A DNA stretch of 30,339 nucleotides, from positions 1 to 30,339 of the forward strand of contig JBDHJS010000042.1 of assembly GCA_039586795.1 (NCBI GenBank). Direction: 5' to 3'. The notes below the pieces were generated by a model. That model was not told the origin of the DNA. It searched no databases and worked only from the letters and a program-made list of their open reading frames with translations. Shown in pieces: positions 4,547 through 27,185 of the stretch. Each line of letters begins with the position of its first letter. Within the stretch, counting starts at the first letter, position 1. A program made the position numbers and the translations under genes. This DNA comes from Gemmatimonadota bacterium. GTDB taxonomy: Bacteria; Gemmatimonadota; Gemmatimonadetes; Palauibacterales; KS3-K002.

Positions 4547-4654
4547 AGTGTTGGGGTGGAAGCTGTTGCGTTGTTGGAGGTTGAGGGGCATCGTAAGGCT
4601 GCTGTTAGGGTCCCGCCAAATGTAGGGTAATGCATCGCTGTTGGCGCTCTTCCG

Positions 4655-4684
4655 AACCCGCTGTCGGATGGCGGGTTTCTTTTT
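4655..4684 (+). terminator. Intrinsic terminator-like hairpin just upstream of rtcA
   Basis: AACCCGCTGT-CGG-ATGGCGGGTT followed by TCTTTTT. Confidence 0.7.
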
Positions 4685-4700
4685 GGACACCCGGAAATAC

Positions 4701-5714
4701 ATGATCGAGATCGACGGATCCTACGGAGAGGGCGGCGGCGCGATCTTGCGGCAGGCGCTGGGCATGGCGGCGTATGCGCGGAAGGCGATACGCGTGTACA
4801 ACATTCGAGCGGGTCGCGAGAAGCCGGGGCTGGCGGCGCAGCACCTGAGGGCGGTCGAGGCGGCGGGCGCCGTGTGCGGCGCCCGGGTGCGCGGCGCCAA
4901 GCTGGGCTCTTCCGAGGTCCTATTCGAGCCGAATCAGATGCAGTCGGGCGCCTTTCAGTTCGATGTGGGGACAGCGGGCTCGGCTACGCTCATCCTGCAG
5001 ACGGTGCTGCTTCCCTGTCTTTCGATGCCAGGGGAATACCAATTCGAAATCACGGGCGGGACCGATGTGCCCTGGTCACCGCCGGCGGACTACCTCAAAA
5101 ACGTTACGCTACCGGTGCTGGCGAAGCTTGGCGACGGTAAGGTCGCGGTGGTGCGTCGCGGCTACTATCCGAAGGGCGGCGGACGACTTCTGGCGCGATT
5201 GGAAGGCGGTTCGCGCCGCGGCTTCTCTCTCGTCCTGCGCGACCCGGGAGACGTCAGGGGTATCAAGGGGGTGAGTCACGCCACCGAGCAGCTGCGCGAG
5301 CGCAAGGTAGCGGAACGGCAAGCGACGGCGGCGAACCACGTGCTGATGCGGCTAGGCTACGAGGTGAGCATCTCCGTGCAGTACTCGGACGCGTCGAACC
5401 TGGGCAGCGGGATCACGTTGTGGACGGAGTCGGACAACGGTCCGTCCGTCGCAGGTTCGGCGCTGGGTGTGAGGGAGAAGGCGGCGGAAGAGGTCGGGCG
5501 CGAGGCGGCACGTGAGCTGTTGGACGAGGTCAATGCGGGGGCTACTGTGGATCGATATCTGGCGGATCAGTTGATCCCGTTCATCGCCGTGTCGGGTGGT
5601 TCGTTGCAGACGTCGGAGATTACGGCGCACACGCGGTCGTGTATGCATGTGGCCGAGCAGGTGCTGGGGGCGCGGTTTTTGGTGGATGAGACGACGGTTA
5701 CGGCGCGGAAGTAG
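4701..5714 (+). CDS. rtcA: RNA 3'-terminal phosphate cyclase
   Basis: MIEIDGSYGEGGG, NIRAGREKPGLAAQH, GTAGS, GGTDVPWSP, RRGYYPKGGG and YLADQL motifs; start moved to ATG 4701 to match the family N-terminus. Confidence 0.93.
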   Translation: MIEIDGSYGEGGGAILRQALGMAAYARKAIRVYNIRAGREKPGLAAQHLRAVEAAGAVCGARVRGAKLGSSEVLFEPNQMQSGAFQFDVGTAGSATLILQTVLLPCLSMPGEYQFEITGGTDVPWSPPADYLKNVTLPVLAKLGDGKVAVVRRGYYPKGGGRLLARLEGGSRRGFSLVLRDPGDVRGIKGVSHATEQLRERKVAERQATAANHVLMRLGYEVSISVQYSDASNLGSGITLWTESDNGPSVAGSALGVREKAAEEVGREAARELLDEVNAGATVDRYLADQLIPFIAVSGGSLQTSEITAHTRSCMHVAEQVLGARFLVDETTVTARK

Positions 5715-17769: not shown

Positions 17770-17804
17770 AAGCAAAGAGCCCGGGAGCGGTGCTCCCGGG
17801 CTCT
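17770..17804 (-). terminator. Intrinsic terminator
   Basis: Perfect 13-bp inverted repeat AGAGCCCGGGAGC-ACC-GCTCCCGGGCTCT followed by TTGCTT on the minus strand. Confidence 0.7.
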
Positions 17805-17838
17805 CTCCGTAACGGAATGTGTTTCCCGTTCGCCAGAC
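17770..17838 (-). ncRNA. Predicted ~68-nt small RNA antisense to the anticodon arm of the adjacent tRNA-like element
   Basis: Bounded by a sigma70-like promoter and a 13-bp terminator hairpin; nt 2-14 (TCTGGCGAACGGG) are the reverse complement of the anticodon arm sequence CCCGTTCGCCAGA. Confidence 0.6.
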
Positions 17839-17844
17839 AATTAA

Positions 17845-17873
17845 AAGCTAGCTGCTCGCTGTTCACCGGTCAA
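17845..17873 (-). promoter_or_regulatory. Sigma70-type promoter TTGACC-N17-TAGCTT
   Basis: -35 at 17873-17868, 17-nt spacer, -10 at 17850-17845, AT-rich discriminator, predicted +1 G at 17838. Confidence 0.6.
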
Positions 17874-17900: not shown

Positions 17901-17993
17901 TGGTGGCGTGCCCCCGGTGGGAGTTGAACCCACACGACCTTGCGGTCACCCATCTGGCGAACGGGCGCGTCTACCAATTCCGCCACGGGGCAC
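17901..17993 (-). tRNA. Non-canonical tRNA-Leu-like RNA (Leu body, anticodon positions read GCC, C33); possibly a pseudo-tRNA
   Basis: D arm TGGCGGAATTGGTAGACGCG, long variable arm T-GACC-GCAA-GGTC-GT, T arm GTGGG-TTCAACT-CCCAC (all Leu-type); anticodon arm CCCGT-TCGCCAG-ATGGG; acceptor GTGCCCCG/CGGGGGCAC with one bulge; 3' end GCCACCA. Confidence 0.85.
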
Positions 17994-18014
17994 CTTGGCC
18001 ATGAGATGACGGAC

Positions 18015-18170
18015 TCGGTATCGGGCGCGCTTATCGCCAAACAGCCTCACAGACCGCGACCACAATAGGTCGCGGCTGTCATCAGATCCTCAAAGGGAGT
18101 GAGCTAGAGCTACTGGGAGGGACGAATCGTGTTTGGAAGGGCGCGCCCGACCCTCACCGGACGCTACCGA
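18015..18170 (-). other. Structured spacer (nested inverted repeats) between leuS and the tRNA-like element
   Basis: TCGGGCGCGC/GCGCGCCCGA (10 bp), CCAAACA/TGTTTGG (7 bp), inner CCGCGACC/GGTCGCGG (8 bp), outer TCGGTA/TACCGA. Confidence 0.5.
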
Positions 18171-18172
18171 AA

Positions 18173-20626
18173 CTACCCCACCACGATGTTGATCAGCCGG
18201 TCGGGCACGAAGATCACCTTGCGGATCTGCTTCCCGTCCATGTGACGCTGCACGCCATCCTCGGCCAGCGCCTTCTCCTTCACCTCGTCCTCGGATGCGC
18301 CGCGCGGAACCGAGATGGTGGCCCGCAGCCGTCCGTTCACCTGCACGGCGATGTCGACCTCGTCGGCGACGGCGAGCTTTGGATCGTATGCTGGCCAGTT
18401 GGTACCGGTGAAGATCGAATCGCCATGGCCGAGATGCTGCCATAGCTCCTCCGCCAGGTGGGGCGCGAAGGGCGCGATCATGACGACCAGCGGCTCGATC
18501 TCGGAGCGGCGCGCCGCGCGGCCACTGGCACGCGCGATGTTCAGGTACTCCATCATCGCGGCGATCGCGGTGTTGTACTGCAGGCTGGCGATATCCTCGG
18601 TCACCTTCTTGATCGTGGCGTGCAGCTTCTGCTCGATCTCCTCCGTCTCCGGTGGCCCGTCGCCCAGCTCGCCGTTCGCCGCGTCCCAGACGCGATCGAA
18701 GAAGCGGGCGATGCCGGTGATCCCCTGCTCGCGGAAGTCGCCGCCCTCTTCGTAGGGGCCGAGGAACATCAGATAGGTGCGGAACGTGTCGGCGCCGTAC
18801 TGCTCTACGTACTCGTCGGGTATCACCACGTTGCCGCGGGACTTCGACATCTTGGCGCCTTCCCGGATGATCAGTCCGTGCTTGCGGAACTTCTCGTACG
18901 GCTCCTCGAACGGCAGGTGCCCCAGGTCGTGGAGCGCCATGGTGAGGAAGCGCGAGTACATCAGGTGCAGCACGGCGTGCTCCTCGCCGCCGATGTACAT
19001 GTCGACGGGCAGCCACTTCTTGGTGCGGTTCGCGTCGAACGGAACGTCGTGCCTGTCCGTCGACGGGTAGCGCATGAAGTACCAGCCCGAGTCGAGGAAG
19101 GTGTCCGAGACGTCGGTCTCACGCTTCGCCGGGCCGCCACACTTCGGGCACTCGACGTTAAGGAACTCCGGGTCGCGGGCCAGCGGACCGATGCCGCTCT
19201 CGTCGGGCCGGAAGTTCTCCACGTGGGGCAGGACCACAGGCAGATCTTCCTCCGGCACCGGGACAGCGCCGTCCTTCTCGCAGTGGATGACCGGGATGGG
19301 CGGCCCCCAGTAGCGCTGCCGGGAGATACACCAGTCGTGTATCCGGTAGTTCACCGCGTGCTCGCCGCGCCCCTGCGAGGCGAGCCAGTCGGTGATCTCT
19401 TTGATCGCTTGCGCCGCCGGGACGCCATCGAACTTGCCGGAGTTGACCAGCACCTCATCCTCGGTGTGCTCGGTGAAGGCGGCCTCGAGGTCGGCGTCCG
19501 GGTCGAAACCCTCATATTGGTCGGCCGGGATGACGACGATGCGGATCGGCAGATCGTATTGGGTCGCGAACTCGAAGTCGCGCTCGTCGTGCGCCGGCAC
19601 GCCCATGATGGCGCCGTGCCCGTACTCCATCAGCACGTAGTCGGCCACCCAGATCGAGATCTCCTCGTCGGTGACCGGGTTGATCGCCTTCGCCCCGGTG
19701 TCGACACCGGTCTTCTGTCGCTCCTCTCCTGCCTTGCGTCGTTCGACCAGGTCCATGGCCAGGGCGTTCCGGACGTACGACTCGACCTCGGAGCGGTGCT
19801 CGTCGGTCGTGATCTCCTGCATGTACGGATGCTCGGGCGCCAGCACCATGAAGGTGGCGCCGAACAGCGTGTCGGGCCGTGTGGTGAAGACGCGCAGCTT
19901 CTTGTCCGAGTGGCCGACGATCTCGAAATCGATGTCGGCGCCGTCGGAGCGACCGATCCAGTTCCGCTGTAGCCGCTTGGTCGAATCGGACCAGTCGATC
20001 CATTCCAGGTTGTCCAGCAGCCGCTGGGCGAAGTCGGTGATCTTGAAGAACCACTGGTCGAGGAACCGCTGAGTCACCTCGCTGCTGCAGCGCTCGCAGC
20101 GGCCGTCGATGACCTGCTCGTTGGCCAGCACGGTCTTGCACGACGGGCACCAGTTGACCGGCGCTTGGCGGCGCTCCGCCAGCCCGGCCTTATAGAGCTG
20201 CAGGAAGATCCACTGGGTCCACTTGTAGTACTCGGGCTGGGTGACGTCGACCACCCGGTCCCAGTCGTACATGAACCCCATGCGCTTCAGCTGCCGGGTG
20301 AAGTTGGCGATGTTCGACGGGATCAGCTCCATCGGGTGAGTGCGCCGCTCGAGGGCGAAGTTCTCCGAGTGGATGCCGAAGGCGTCGAACCCGATGGGCT
20401 CGAAGACGTCGTTCCCCTGCAGCTGCTTGAAGCGGCCGTGGATGTCGGCGCCGGTGAAAGCGTACACGTTCCCCACGTGCAGCCCCTCCGCCGATGGGTA
20501 GGGGTACATCATAAGGTTGTAGAAGGGATTCGCCGCCCCGTCTATGTCGACATTGTTCAGGCGGGTCTCATCCCAGCGCTTCTGCCACTTCGTCTCGACC
20601 GCGACCGGGTCGTAGCGCTCAGCCAT
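18173..20626 (-). CDS. leuS: Leucine--tRNA ligase
   Basis: MYPYPS, HIGH-like HVGN, editing domain FTTRPDTLFG and GAIMGVPAHDERD, ISRQRYWG, KMSKS, C-terminal VQVNG.LR. Confidence 0.97.
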   Translation of the reverse strand: MAERYDPVAVETKWQKRWDETRLNNVDIDGAANPFYNLMMYPYPSAEGLHVGNVYAFTGADIHGRFKQLQGNDVFEPIGFDAFGIHSENFALERRTHPMELIPSNIANFTRQLKRMGFMYDWDRVVDVTQPEYYKWTQWIFLQLYKAGLAERRQAPVNWCPSCKTVLANEQVIDGRCERCSSEVTQRFLDQWFFKITDFAQRLLDNLEWIDWSDSTKRLQRNWIGRSDGADIDFEIVGHSDKKLRVFTTRPDTLFGATFMVLAPEHPYMQEITTDEHRSEVESYVRNALAMDLVERRKAGEERQKTGVDTGAKAINPVTDEEISIWVADYVLMEYGHGAIMGVPAHDERDFEFATQYDLPIRIVVIPADQYEGFDPDADLEAAFTEHTEDEVLVNSGKFDGVPAAQAIKEITDWLASQGRGEHAVNYRIHDWCISRQRYWGPPIPVIHCEKDGAVPVPEEDLPVVLPHVENFRPDESGIGPLARDPEFLNVECPKCGGPAKRETDVSDTFLDSGWYFMRYPSTDRHDVPFDANRTKKWLPVDMYIGGEEHAVLHLMYSRFLTMALHDLGHLPFEEPYEKFRKHGLIIREGAKMSKSRGNVVIPDEYVEQYGADTFRTYLMFLGPYEEGGDFREQGITGIARFFDRVWDAANGELGDGPPETEEIEQKLHATIKKVTEDIASLQYNTAIAAMMEYLNIARASGRAARRSEIEPLVVMIAPFAPHLAEELWQHLGHGDSIFTGTNWPAYDPKLAVADEVDIAVQVNGRLRATISVPRGASEDEVKEKALAEDGVQRHMDGKQIRKVIFVPDRLINIVVG

Positions 20627-25844: not shown

Positions 25845-26921
25845 CTACCGGGTACGCACGTAGTAGAGACGCTCGTTGACCTGGTCCCCCTTGTAACGAC
25901 GGGTCTCGCTGTCACGATCCGACCGGTAGCGCTTGTAAGGCTGTTCCAGCCGTTGGTAGGTATCGGCTACGCCGCGTTCCCGCATCACGCTCTCGATCCT
26001 CTCCTCGGAGATGATCCCTTCCGAGTTGTAGCTCAGCAGAATGTGACGGCAGTCGGCAGCGGCGACGAGGTCGCCGAAAGCGCCCTCGCATTGCCGCCGC
26101 CGCGACCAGTCGGATCGCTTGTCGGCGTCCTCGGGCAGTCCCGTCTTGCCCCGTAGCTTCGGCGGTTCGTCGAACCAGCCTTCGGCGATGATCTCGGGGA
26201 TGTGGTAGTAGCCCGCGTACTGGCGCGTGTTGTAGGGCGGGTCGAGGTACAGGAGATCGAATGTCGGCAGGTCCCGAACTACCTCGATGGCGTCCCGCTG
26301 GTAGGCCCGGTGCTCGCGCCCTGTGCCCGTCACGAGAAGGGGCGGCCTGAGGCGGAGCGGGCGTGTGGCGTTAGGCTGCCAGCTCTTCACGTAGGCGGCG
26401 TAGACGCCGGTGGTGTTGGCGACGCGATCGGCGGCTTCGATCAGGCCGGCGAGCAGCACGTAGTACTCGCCGTCGTCGACCAGGCCGGTCGCTTGCCAAT
26501 CATGGATGCGGTGTCGGATCGCGTCGATCTTTCCTGCGTTCTCTGCTGTGAAGTATCGACGCTCGTGCTCCGAGCCGGCATGGCCCTCGGGGCAGAAATG
26601 CTCGTAGATGAAGCTCGACTCCGGATCGAGGGCATTGAGATGGCCGGTGACCGAGCTCAATGGATCGTCGCCGAGCGGGATCTGGTCTGCCAGGCTTCTG
26701 AACGTCGGTGCCGCATCCACCACGACGTAGGCCCATTGCAGGGCGAAGCTGAACGACATGATATCGCTCGTCGTCACCGCGTATTCGTGGCCCTTCAGGA
26801 ACTTCGCCACCGCAGCGGTCCCGGCAAACGGGTCGCACGCCGTCCCACCGGCGATGTCCAGCTCCTTCAGGGCGCCGTTGATGAACGGGATCAGCTTGCT
26901 CTTGTTGCCGATATAGCGCAC
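25845..26921 (-). CDS. D12-class N6-adenine DNA methyltransferase (FokI/NlaIII-like), orphan in this window
   Basis: MRYIGNK, motif I DPFAGTAAV, motif IV LYLDPPYN.RQY, LSYNSEG. Confidence 0.9.
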   Translation of the reverse strand: MRYIGNKSKLIPFINGALKELDIAGGTACDPFAGTAAVAKFLKGHEYAVTTSDIMSFSFALQWAYVVVDAAPTFRSLADQIPLGDDPLSSVTGHLNALDPESSFIYEHFCPEGHAGSEHERRYFTAENAGKIDAIRHRIHDWQATGLVDDGEYYVLLAGLIEAADRVANTTGVYAAYVKSWQPNATRPLRLRPPLLVTGTGREHRAYQRDAIEVVRDLPTFDLLYLDPPYNTRQYAGYYHIPEIIAEGWFDEPPKLRGKTGLPEDADKRSDWSRRRQCEGAFGDLVAAADCRHILLSYNSEGIISEERIESVMRERGVADTYQRLEQPYKRYRSDRDSETRRYKGDQVNERLYYVRTR

Positions 26922-27185
26922 GTCGGATAAGTCCCTGTTCTGGTGGAACGGGTCCGGGCTTCGGGCCTAAGATCGGGAGGGTCTCGGGAGGCAGCAACAC
27001 CTTACCAAAAGGCCCGCCGGCGCCTGCTGACCCCTCGCATCGGGCAGATGGGCTGAGGCTGATTCCACGGGACCAGCCGCACCGACGAGCCTTCTGTGGA
27101 AATCACTATAGGAACGGCCCGTCACCCGAGTATCAGCTGATTGTCAACTGGGGATCGTCCAGCGAATTTGCCTGAGCAGCGGGCC

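Follow-up and report, generated by a model that had tools for sequence, protein, structure and literature searches.

A leucine-bodied tRNA with a glycine anticodon at the core of a conserved RNA-only cassette of Gemmatimonadota: a candidate all-RNA toxin-antitoxin module

The DNA analysed here, called the window, is a stretch of 30,339 nucleotides from a Gemmatimonadota bacterium (contig JBDHJS010000042.1 of assembly GCA_039586795.1). Its minus strand carries a tRNA gene that joins a leucine-type body to the anticodon GCC, and this gene is the core of a cassette of about 320 nt that is made of RNA genes only (Table 1). The cassette has four parts, namely a promoter, P1, with a leader that is an antisense copy of part of the tRNA, the tRNA itself, a second promoter, P2, and a predicted small RNA complementary to the anticodon arm. 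P1, P2 and the terminator are putative elements recognised by their conservation; a generic promoter and terminator scanner missed all three. Alignments A1/A2 of the cassettes contain no conserved open reading frame. The cassette is multicopy and sits at scattered sites in the Gemmatimonadota family of the source organism, with relatives in further lineages. An earlier note on this DNA had described the tRNA gene; the main features lie outside the part that it covered, namely the leader antisense to the tRNA, a promoter of competence type and, further downstream, the sRNA against the anticodon.

Table 1. Features of the cassette and of related elements. Positions are those of the window unless a contig or locus is named.
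Feature	Position	Strand	Remarks
leuS, single ordinary LeuRS	18173..20626	-	neighbour only, outside the cassette
P1 upstream box, direct repeat TTGA-N7-(A/T)TGA	18079..18093	-	11 nt before the -10 hexamer; common to recA, comEA and dprA promoters
P1 -10 hexamer TATTGT	18062..18067	-	no variation at A2 or T6 across 37 distinct cassette sites
5' leader of the precursor	17992..18056	-	start predicted from the -10; antisense to tRNA nt 7-40, imperfectly matched
Leader segment against the anticodon loop	18034..18042	-	9 bp in the window; family-wide, 73% of cells are paired
Leader segment against tRNA nt 7-21 (D arm)	18006..18020	-	86% of cells paired in the family
tRNA, Leu-type body, GCC anticodon	17909..17991	-	G1 = 17991, A73 = 17909; one C short in the assembly
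tRNA body marks	17909..17991	-	A73, Leu D loop, variable arm of 4-5 bp
Anticodon arm, target of the sRNA seed	17949..17965	-	loop UCGCCAG 17960-17954, anticodon GCC 17958-17956
3' trailer CGCCACCA	17901..17908	-	conserved part is C-G-C-C only; pairs with the leader in the precursor
P2, sigma70-like TTGACC-17 nt-TAGCTT	17845..17873	-	same layout in 40/41 distinct cassettes; below the generic scanner threshold
Predicted antisense sRNA, about 70 nt	17772..17839	-	start predicted from P2
sRNA seed	17825..17837	-	13 nt, exactly complementary to the anticodon arm
sRNA second box	17807..17817	-	against tRNA nt 6-16, two G-U pairs; also a small hairpin
GC-rich hairpin and short U tail, terminator-like	17772..17804	-	ends sRNA and read-through precursor alike; U tail missed as too weak by the generic scanner
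TTGA-N7-TTGA-N11-TAnnnT sites, source genome	C24:44454, C50:34021, C49:791 and 59685, C57:13074, C50:56503, C22:7262		
Partnerless Leu-body tRNAs	L034:1501-1561, L038:2501-2561, L050:2501-2562, L078:1356-1415, L031:1501-1563, L055:2501-2561		
Phage GUU tRNAs on viral contigs	L353, L357, L364, L378, L384, L385 and others		
T-loop insert sites	L012:1670-1730, L021:1668-1730, L027:1587-1649, L082:1440-1500, L100:642-702, L159:1562-1624, L137		
T-loop element in Lys-like tRNA halves	L544, L550, L552, L553, L557, L558		

ARAGORN calls the window gene tRNA-Gly(GCC). The determinants of tRNA-Leu are A73, a Leu-type D loop, the A15:U48 pair and a variable arm with a short stem, and all of them are present; tRNA-Gly has a class I body with U73, which the long variable arm and A73 of the window gene do not match. 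The gene shares its D arm letter for letter with the genome's own tRNA-Leu(CAG), and its D and T/variable halves score best with the gene's own paralogue, followed by the genome's tRNA-Leu(CAG) and tRNA-Leu(UAG). We thereby confirm the leucine-type D, variable and T arms that the earlier note had described for this minus-strand gene, as well as its reading of the loop with C33. The acceptor and T stems form a 7/5 branch in the consensus fold and a 9/5 branch in the precursor. Nothing in the window matches Rfam at the gathering threshold; at the level of E-values the generic tRNA model is the only fit. The source genome (G000; 4.68 Mb, 62% G+C, 97.8% complete by marker count) encodes one LeuRS, an ordinary housekeeping copy, and many of its tRNA genes have no encoded CCA. 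A look at its leucine and glycine tRNA set, which had been suggested along with the first description, found five ordinary tRNA-Leu genes and ordinary tRNA-Gly genes with the anticodons GCC, CCC and UCC; a second gene with a leucine body and GCC lies on contig C22. By codon use in 1764 long ORFs, GGC ranks 4th, GCC 5th and CGC 13th. The ARAGORN list of this genome holds a tRNA-Sec and has no tRNA for Ser(GGA/CGA), Lys(UUU), Gln(CUG) or Arg(CCG); these are probably unassembled.

The acceptor end had looked odd, with a bulged G, a CCACCA end and an upstream GGC (18000-17998) that might lengthen the helix. Contigs from two DNA runs of different studies, 99-100% alike the window and of low depth (2.85 and 3.8), carry one more G behind 17986: X1 over 269 nt with 0 other letters differing, X3 over 790 nt with 1. 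A complete pair stands at that column in 30 of 32 aligned homologues. Given that both contigs carry the base and 30/32 homologues have the pair, we attribute the bulge to a slip of the assembly or to a private deletion. Nor is the CCACCA end conserved: in alignment A2, G-C-C is kept after A73-C74 in about 28 of 32 rows, followed by the final A in only 13, and a 14-bp acceptor branch ending in G-CCA was dropped as a candidate for the same lack of a conserved final A. What stands of the extended acceptor is an extension by two pairs, G-2:C74 (32/32) and U-1:A73 (31/32), best read as precursor pairing. The helix with the upstream GGC does not stand, as the consensus fold puts 18000-17998 into a leader hairpin and pairs the trailer GCC with the first GGU of the transcript. 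The oddities of the acceptor end are therefore either an assembly or private variant or precursor pairing.

The tRNA follows the leuS stop by 181 nt, which agrees with its description as lying directly behind leuS; as a rule of the family this linkage fails, being found at 2 of the 24 leuS loci with at least 300 nt available downstream, those of the source genome and of G009. Another such locus (L328, genome G017) has an orphan sRNA with the window's seed, and L327 carries a deletion scar in which the leader is fused to the terminator. Across loci the neighbouring genes are unrelated (90 ORFs scanned). Two of the roles first suggested, a leuS-tied decoy or feedback element of LeuRS and a non-ribosomal leucine donor with an extended, bulged acceptor, would suit the position in these two genomes and the conserved two-pair extension. 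The decoy or feedback element loses its basis with so rare a linkage, such varied neighbours and a single ordinary LeuRS; as to both roles, no transferase gene is shared between loci, the bulge is absent from the reads, and neither role accounts for a promoter of its own or for the sRNA. Largely refuted by the missing leuS linkage, these roles are in our estimate very improbable, and among the three options of the earlier note the insertion of leucine at non-leucine codons fits best. A gene for RtcA (RNA 3'-terminal phosphate cyclase) lies in the window at 4641-5714, 12 kb from the cassette, and no link between the two was seen. Between leuS and P1 (18120-18150) there is a fragment of a GC-rich palindromic repeat that gives 7 BLAST pieces on 3 contigs of the source genome and that also adjoins cassettes or orphan sRNAs at L326, L329, L480, L485 and L509.

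We find that the predicted downstream sRNA is matched in sequence to its own tRNA. P2 begins 36 nt behind A73, and the seed follows P2 by 7 nt. Its exact complementarity to the anticodon arm is 13 nt long in the window and 10-16 nt long at most loci of the family. As controls, 11 ordinary Leu tRNAs yield exact matches of 3-7 nt, and viral tRNAs that share the D arm reach no more than 9 nt. In 41 of 45 family rows (four were dropped, two of them at contig ends, one whose tRNA is interrupted by an insertion and one that has lost its seed) the mean duplex energy of arm and seed is -24.8 kcal/mol for cognate and -12.1 kcal/mol for non-cognate combinations; the cognate arm is the best in 32/41 and among the top three in 38/41, and 0 of 20,000 permutations reach the observed sum, where kin do not count as independent. 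Likewise, cognate pairing beats swapped pairing in all 13 hand-picked disjoint pairs with different arms, in one of them by 0.3 kcal/mol only and with one same-arm pair excluded; these pairs come from a mostly unresolved tree built without the arm, the seed and the anti-anticodon part of the leader. With the register set by the best run, positions 34-36 are paired in 41/41, and several types of pair occur at positions 32, 33 and 36-39. Both sRNAs of the source genome prefer their own tRNA (-46.6 and -43.9, against about -33 for the paralogue), and prefer it over all host tRNAs as well. The second box of the sRNA is highly conserved. Of two RNA runs, X19 yields two exact contigs of 151 nt across the promoters, which show no starts, ends or strand and may be DNA, and the contigs of X16 do not cover the cassette. 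A loose sRNA pattern run on 401 genomes of the phylum was dropped, its matches being mostly due to chance.

Outside the family, the same layout of tRNA, promoter, antisense RNA and hairpin recurs in Gemmatimonadota (L041, L045, L059, L065, L073, L076), in an acidobacterium (L060), in an unclassified bacterium (L049, L051) and on metagenome contigs (L095, L096), and more weakly at L033 and L052, with z from -3.1 to -8.1 for this outside set. The sRNA model trained on the family scores six of these outside loci (E 3e-6 to 0.01, a rough measure). The cassettes at L095 and L096 have a second anti-anticodon copy, placed directly behind A73, in addition to that of the sRNA. Thirteen other tested pattern matches, among them L031, L034, L038, L050, L055 and L078, have no antisense partner. 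Such partnerless Leu-body tRNAs, with UUGCCAA or UUGCCAC loops, come from a viral contig, Clostridia, Verrucomicrobiae and others, and four of them have a broken or bulged acceptor, yet promoter-like and terminator-like flanks of their own. A viral scan of at least 120 stretches without anticodon constraint found no further cassette. About twenty phage tRNAs combine a GUU (Asn) anticodon with a Leu-like D arm and an expanded variable region.

The second antisense copy is the leader, about 63 nt between P1 and G1. When the leader is folded onto the tRNA in alignment A2, 82% of the cells are paired, as compared with 33-42% when the two are slid against each other, and there are 45 double changes against 22 in shuffled alignments, a value reached in 0 of 500 shuffles. 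The consensus program instead prefers a cloverleaf in which the leader forms a hairpin of its own and the first GGU pairs with the trailer GCC. Folding of 33 single precursors favours the antisense fold in 18 and the cloverleaf in 13; the anticodon part of the pairing is weak in several clades, and the window precursor favours the shut fold whether the extra base is included or not (0.91 and 0.88). We infer from these models that leader and tRNA may form a two-state precursor, inert until refolded and cut. A pseudoknot of T-box kind on the anticodon alone had been considered for the leader and was replaced by the full antisense hairpin.

P1 has the layout TTGA-N7-TTGA, 11 nt, TAnnnT. A matrix built from the cassette sites alone, with a threshold of at least 15 bits, finds this box at the family's loci before recA (26/27), comEA (17/23) and dprA (13/19), before lexA in 0/28 and in 0 of 1000 random genome windows; the repeat is visible in 23/23 comEA rows and 17/19 dprA rows. 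In the source genome, the only one in which the ssb, recQ and pseudopilin sites were checked, it also stands before recQ, ssb, a pseudopilin, an integrase fragment and some protein toxin-antitoxin and four-helix-bundle genes. Genes for recA, comEA, dprA, ssb and pilins make up the usual competence set, and P1 may thus belong to a candidate competence-type regulon of this Gemmatimonadota family; a DNA-damage regulon that includes uptake genes is possible. The constant distance from box to -10 suggests an activator. A LexA box was rejected on the lexA count, and a PafBC-type element found no WYL-domain match in the source genome. As the exact form of the box occurs in just 8 of 151 genomes of the class, the competence link is limited to this family, for which P1 is the first candidate competence box. 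A weaker copy of the repeat, at 27115-27147 of the window on the minus strand, reaches 16 bits and lacks a -10 at the expected spacing; it precedes the ORF at 25845-26921, whose product of 358 aa has no NCBIfam match and by eye resembles a DNA adenine methyltransferase at its start.

How is the cassette kept and lost? A pattern without anticodon constraint finds 29 tRNA copies in 16 of 31 family genomes, at most four in each. An sRNA covariance model run on the 31 genomes gave a list of some 150 matches and counted a further 39 beyond it, and our survey of loss covers 71 distinct sRNA copies among the matches listed (30 loci, 40 regions and earlier loci). Intact tRNAs precede 28 of the 71, and each of these 28 has P2 and forms its cognate duplex at -20 kcal/mol or below; 11 follow a broken tRNA, 29 have no tRNA and 3 are unclassifiable. 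Viewed from the other side, all 35 intact tRNAs that have 200 nt of sequence after them are followed by the sRNA hairpin. L522 comes closest to a counter-example, its seed being lost, but its tRNA carries A7:C66 and U56, and the poorest seeds (L012, L087, L522, L140) all accompany damaged tRNAs. Loss is thus one-sided, the sRNA outliving the tRNA. We found no transposase or terminal repeat that would account for the mobility of the cassette. Deletions of the tRNA or of the D arm at L327, L503, L524, L140, L505 and L081 join short repeated words that are common to leader, tRNA and sRNA, and from these joints the antisense copies appear to act as recombination substrates.

Are these copies relics? 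Broken tRNAs, nearby repeats and accessory genes might suggest a decaying pseudo-tRNA or the remnant of an integration site with an accidental inverted duplication. Compensatory changes, up to 14 of 32 rows per pair in the anticodon stem and found in seed and leader too, are not expected of decay, nor are two conserved promoters and a presence across genera and in Acidobacteria; we regard decay as scarcely credible. The earlier view that repurposing explains this tRNA better than decay gains support from the conserved multicopy family and from the anticodon-stem changes.

Among the 29 orphan sRNAs, 9 keep P2 and their seed and 4 keep a remnant of the leader or of P1; 18, with neither P2 nor remnant, may be mere terminator-like repeats. 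The 9 with P2 also fit an independent function of the sRNA, so that the sRNA could be the effector, a repressor of mRNAs like RocR, and the competence-induced tRNA-like RNA its sponge. The high conservation of the second box would suit such a role, and sRNAs that repress competence genes exist, as the accessible text of PMC12378983 describes. The seeds, however, track the tRNA and not a shared target, a sponge has no need of an intact leucine body, and the source-genome sRNAs give no pairing signal with the start regions of recA, comEA, dprA, ssb, recQ and the pilin (at most about 1.5 sd over random windows). A sponge seems to us quite improbable.

The tRNAs themselves speak to decoding. The 28 intact copies carry the anticodons GCC (15), GCG (8), ACC (2), GGC (1), GCU (1) and GUC (1), and none for leucine; A73 is present in 27, the exception being a register shift from a one-base deletion, purine-34 in 28, purine-37 in 27 and U33 in only 15, and positions 32 and 38 are often unusual. 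This variety rests on searches without anticodon constraint, in which the loops ACC, GGC, GUC and GAC were also met; patterns that require G34-C35 are therefore uninformative on anticodon conservation. Relaxed positions 32, 33 and 38 also fit an RNA that never decodes. Such a toxin would sink LeuRS or EF-Tu, or stall A sites and raise the stringent response, with the loop serving as a handle for the sRNA, and the asymmetry of loss would be the same as for a decoding toxin. Against it, the purines 34 and 37, the seven-nucleotide loop and a covarying stem of 5 bp are kept, distant members have canonical UUGCCAA or CUGCGAA loops, and a sink need not avoid leucine anticodons. We hold a non-decoding toxin to be improbable.

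Given the matched seed, the antisense leader, the shared promoter box and the one-sided loss, the cassette is probably a protein-free toxin-antitoxin module whose toxin is a mistranslating tRNA. P1 would fire with the recA/comEA/dprA regulon and give a precursor shut by its antisense leader, a fraction of which would refold to the cloverleaf, be cut by RNase P, trimmed to A73 and supplied with CCA. Bacterial LeuRS generally ignores the anticodon, and the housekeeping enzyme, reading the body, would charge the tRNA with leucine. The window tRNA would then deliver leucine at GGC/GGU and poison the proteome, other copies would do so at CGC/CGU, GCC/GCU, AGC/AGU and GAC/GAU, and loops without U33 would damp the rate. 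The sRNA, made constitutively from P2, would nucleate on the anticodon loop, zip into the D arm and unfold or destroy the tRNA; upon loss of the cassette or a stop of transcription the labile sRNA would be gone first and the stable tRNA freed. Timing by competence would put a penalty on cells whose incoming DNA deletes the cassette, a chromosomal curing, or would arrest competent cells. We advance more tentatively, as a conjecture we would not yet wager on, that the cassette is a selfish all-RNA element, in which a Leu-charged tRNA that miscodes the commonest Gly, Arg and Ala codons, held by two antisense guards and triggered by competence, poisons the transformants that delete it; the sRNA seed would then diversify with the anticodon loop in the manner of an incompatibility group.

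Published work bears on several of these steps. In the accessible text of PMC11415595 the independence of LeuRS from the anticodon is stated in general terms, and natural mistranslating tRNAs are described as often having A33 or G33, with G33 curbing the rate; C33 is therefore a mild fit rather than an objection. A serine-identity tRNA with a leucine anticodon killed E. coli (PMC5389517, main text). Counting against the proposal, no mistranslation could be detected in vivo for the nematode tRNAs that carry Gly anticodons and are charged with Leu, according to the available part of PMC4300185. Transformation has been proposed to cure chromosomes of accessory DNA, which elements counter in several ways (PMC12378983, in its accessible portion).

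The same promoter could serve the host. A domesticated brake would release mistranslation in a controlled pulse, or slow translation down, when cells are competent or under DNA stress, leading to growth arrest and phenotypic diversification without addiction, with the sRNA setting the threshold. P1 carries the box of a host regulon; growth often stops in competent cells (as reviewed in the accessible text of PMC12378983), and mistranslation by tRNA-ProX has been proposed to be programmed (PMC11415595, in the portion available). Yet the cassettes are patchy, multicopy, scattered and often deleted, and anticodon and seed diversify among paralogues into private pairs, which is typical of selfish modules and not of a core function. 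We judge the brake unlikely, while deserving of some weight.

Among known systems, the mistranslating toxin-antitoxin proposed here stands closest to type VIII, where creTA and SdsR-RyeA likewise consist of two adjacent RNAs on the same or opposite strands, as far as the available text of PMC10767807 describes them. The tRNA and the sRNA of the cassette are both non-coding, each with a promoter, and there is no protein toxin; that the antitoxin is specific for its cognate toxin is an in silico result. The cassette fits the two-RNA definition and is a candidate member of type VIII, pending toxicity and rescue. By the same source, CreT sequesters a tRNA and CreA acts on transcription through CRISPR Cascade, and the partners SdsR and RyeA overlap on opposite strands, whereas the presumed toxin here is itself a tRNA and the antitoxin a separate gene on the same strand that pairs with the anticodon arm. 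No cas family occurs among the 90 neighbouring ORFs or 20 window proteins, and creTA is not matched. In hok/sok and tisB/istR-1 the primary transcript is inert, folded by its leader and activated by processing, and the antisense RNA comes from a second promoter; it is also part of the logic of these type I systems that the toxin side has a stress-regulon promoter and that orphan antitoxins occur. The cassette resembles them in this control logic and differs in that it has no toxic peptide and no conserved frame, that the antisense target is a tRNA and that its box does not precede lexA.

Allo-tRNAs, as the main text of PMC5389517 presents them, likewise combine a mismatch of identity and anticodon with diverse anticodons, cause lethal mistranslation in E. 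coli and are found near protein toxin-antitoxin genes; they have 8/4 or 9/3 folds and Ser or Ala identity, unlike the 7/5 fold and Leu identity of the cassette tRNA, whose 7/5 branch (9/5 in the precursor) is not the 12-bp branch of allo-tRNAs. That main text mentions no antisense or complementary partner, and the available portions of PMC7609411 and PMC11415595 mention no antisense RNA. The tRNA-ProX/ProRSx pair of Streptomyces (PMC11415595, accessible part) is also a bacterial mistranslating family with several anticodons per body and bases other than U33; tRNA-ProX has proline identity and a dedicated synthetase isoform, as opposed to the housekeeping LeuRS and the two antisense RNAs of the cassette. 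Nematode nev-tRNA-Gly(CCC) shares the long variable arm, the Gly anticodon and the leucine charge, but is eukaryotic, with no antisense partner described in the accessible text of PMC4300185. RocR/RocRp and other devices against transformation are likewise RNA-based means of accessory DNA against natural transformation (PMC12378983, available text); RocRp silences competence mRNAs, whereas the cassette sRNA targets its own tRNA, and the cassette RNA, unlike RocRp, would be switched on by a competence-type box. The same portion of that review does not mention tRNA. In the open literature, which excludes subscription papers and supplements (such as that of PMC5389517, on irregular tRNA polycistrons), our searches brought up neither a natural antisense RNA directed at the anticodon arm of a tRNA, nor a toxin-antitoxin system in which a tRNA is the toxin, nor any account of the P1 box. 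The cassette is real, conserved and outside the described systems, and the mechanism, read from sequence, is plausible.

If the mechanism holds, it would explain why identity-mismatched tRNAs are retained, a standing question for allo-tRNAs and tRNA-ProX, add a further mechanism to type VIII and supply a library of orthogonal tRNA off-switches for work on the genetic code. Because the toxin promoter would then be wired to a DNA-uptake regulon, the cassette would also offer a direct test of the chromosomal-curing conflict. Annotation calls for caution, as cassette tRNAs are named tRNA-Gly, tRNA-Arg or tRNA-Ser by their anticodon.

Seven cassette tRNAs with six different anticodon loops carry, at the same position in the T loop, an insert of 61-63 nt with two hairpins. 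The element also occurs in duplicated 3' halves of a Lys-like tRNA, several per contig, and its presence in cassette tRNAs is therefore no specific evidence of selection against toxicity. With 20 matches in 10 of the 31 family genomes and none in the source genome, it looks like a protein-less mini element that targets T loops.
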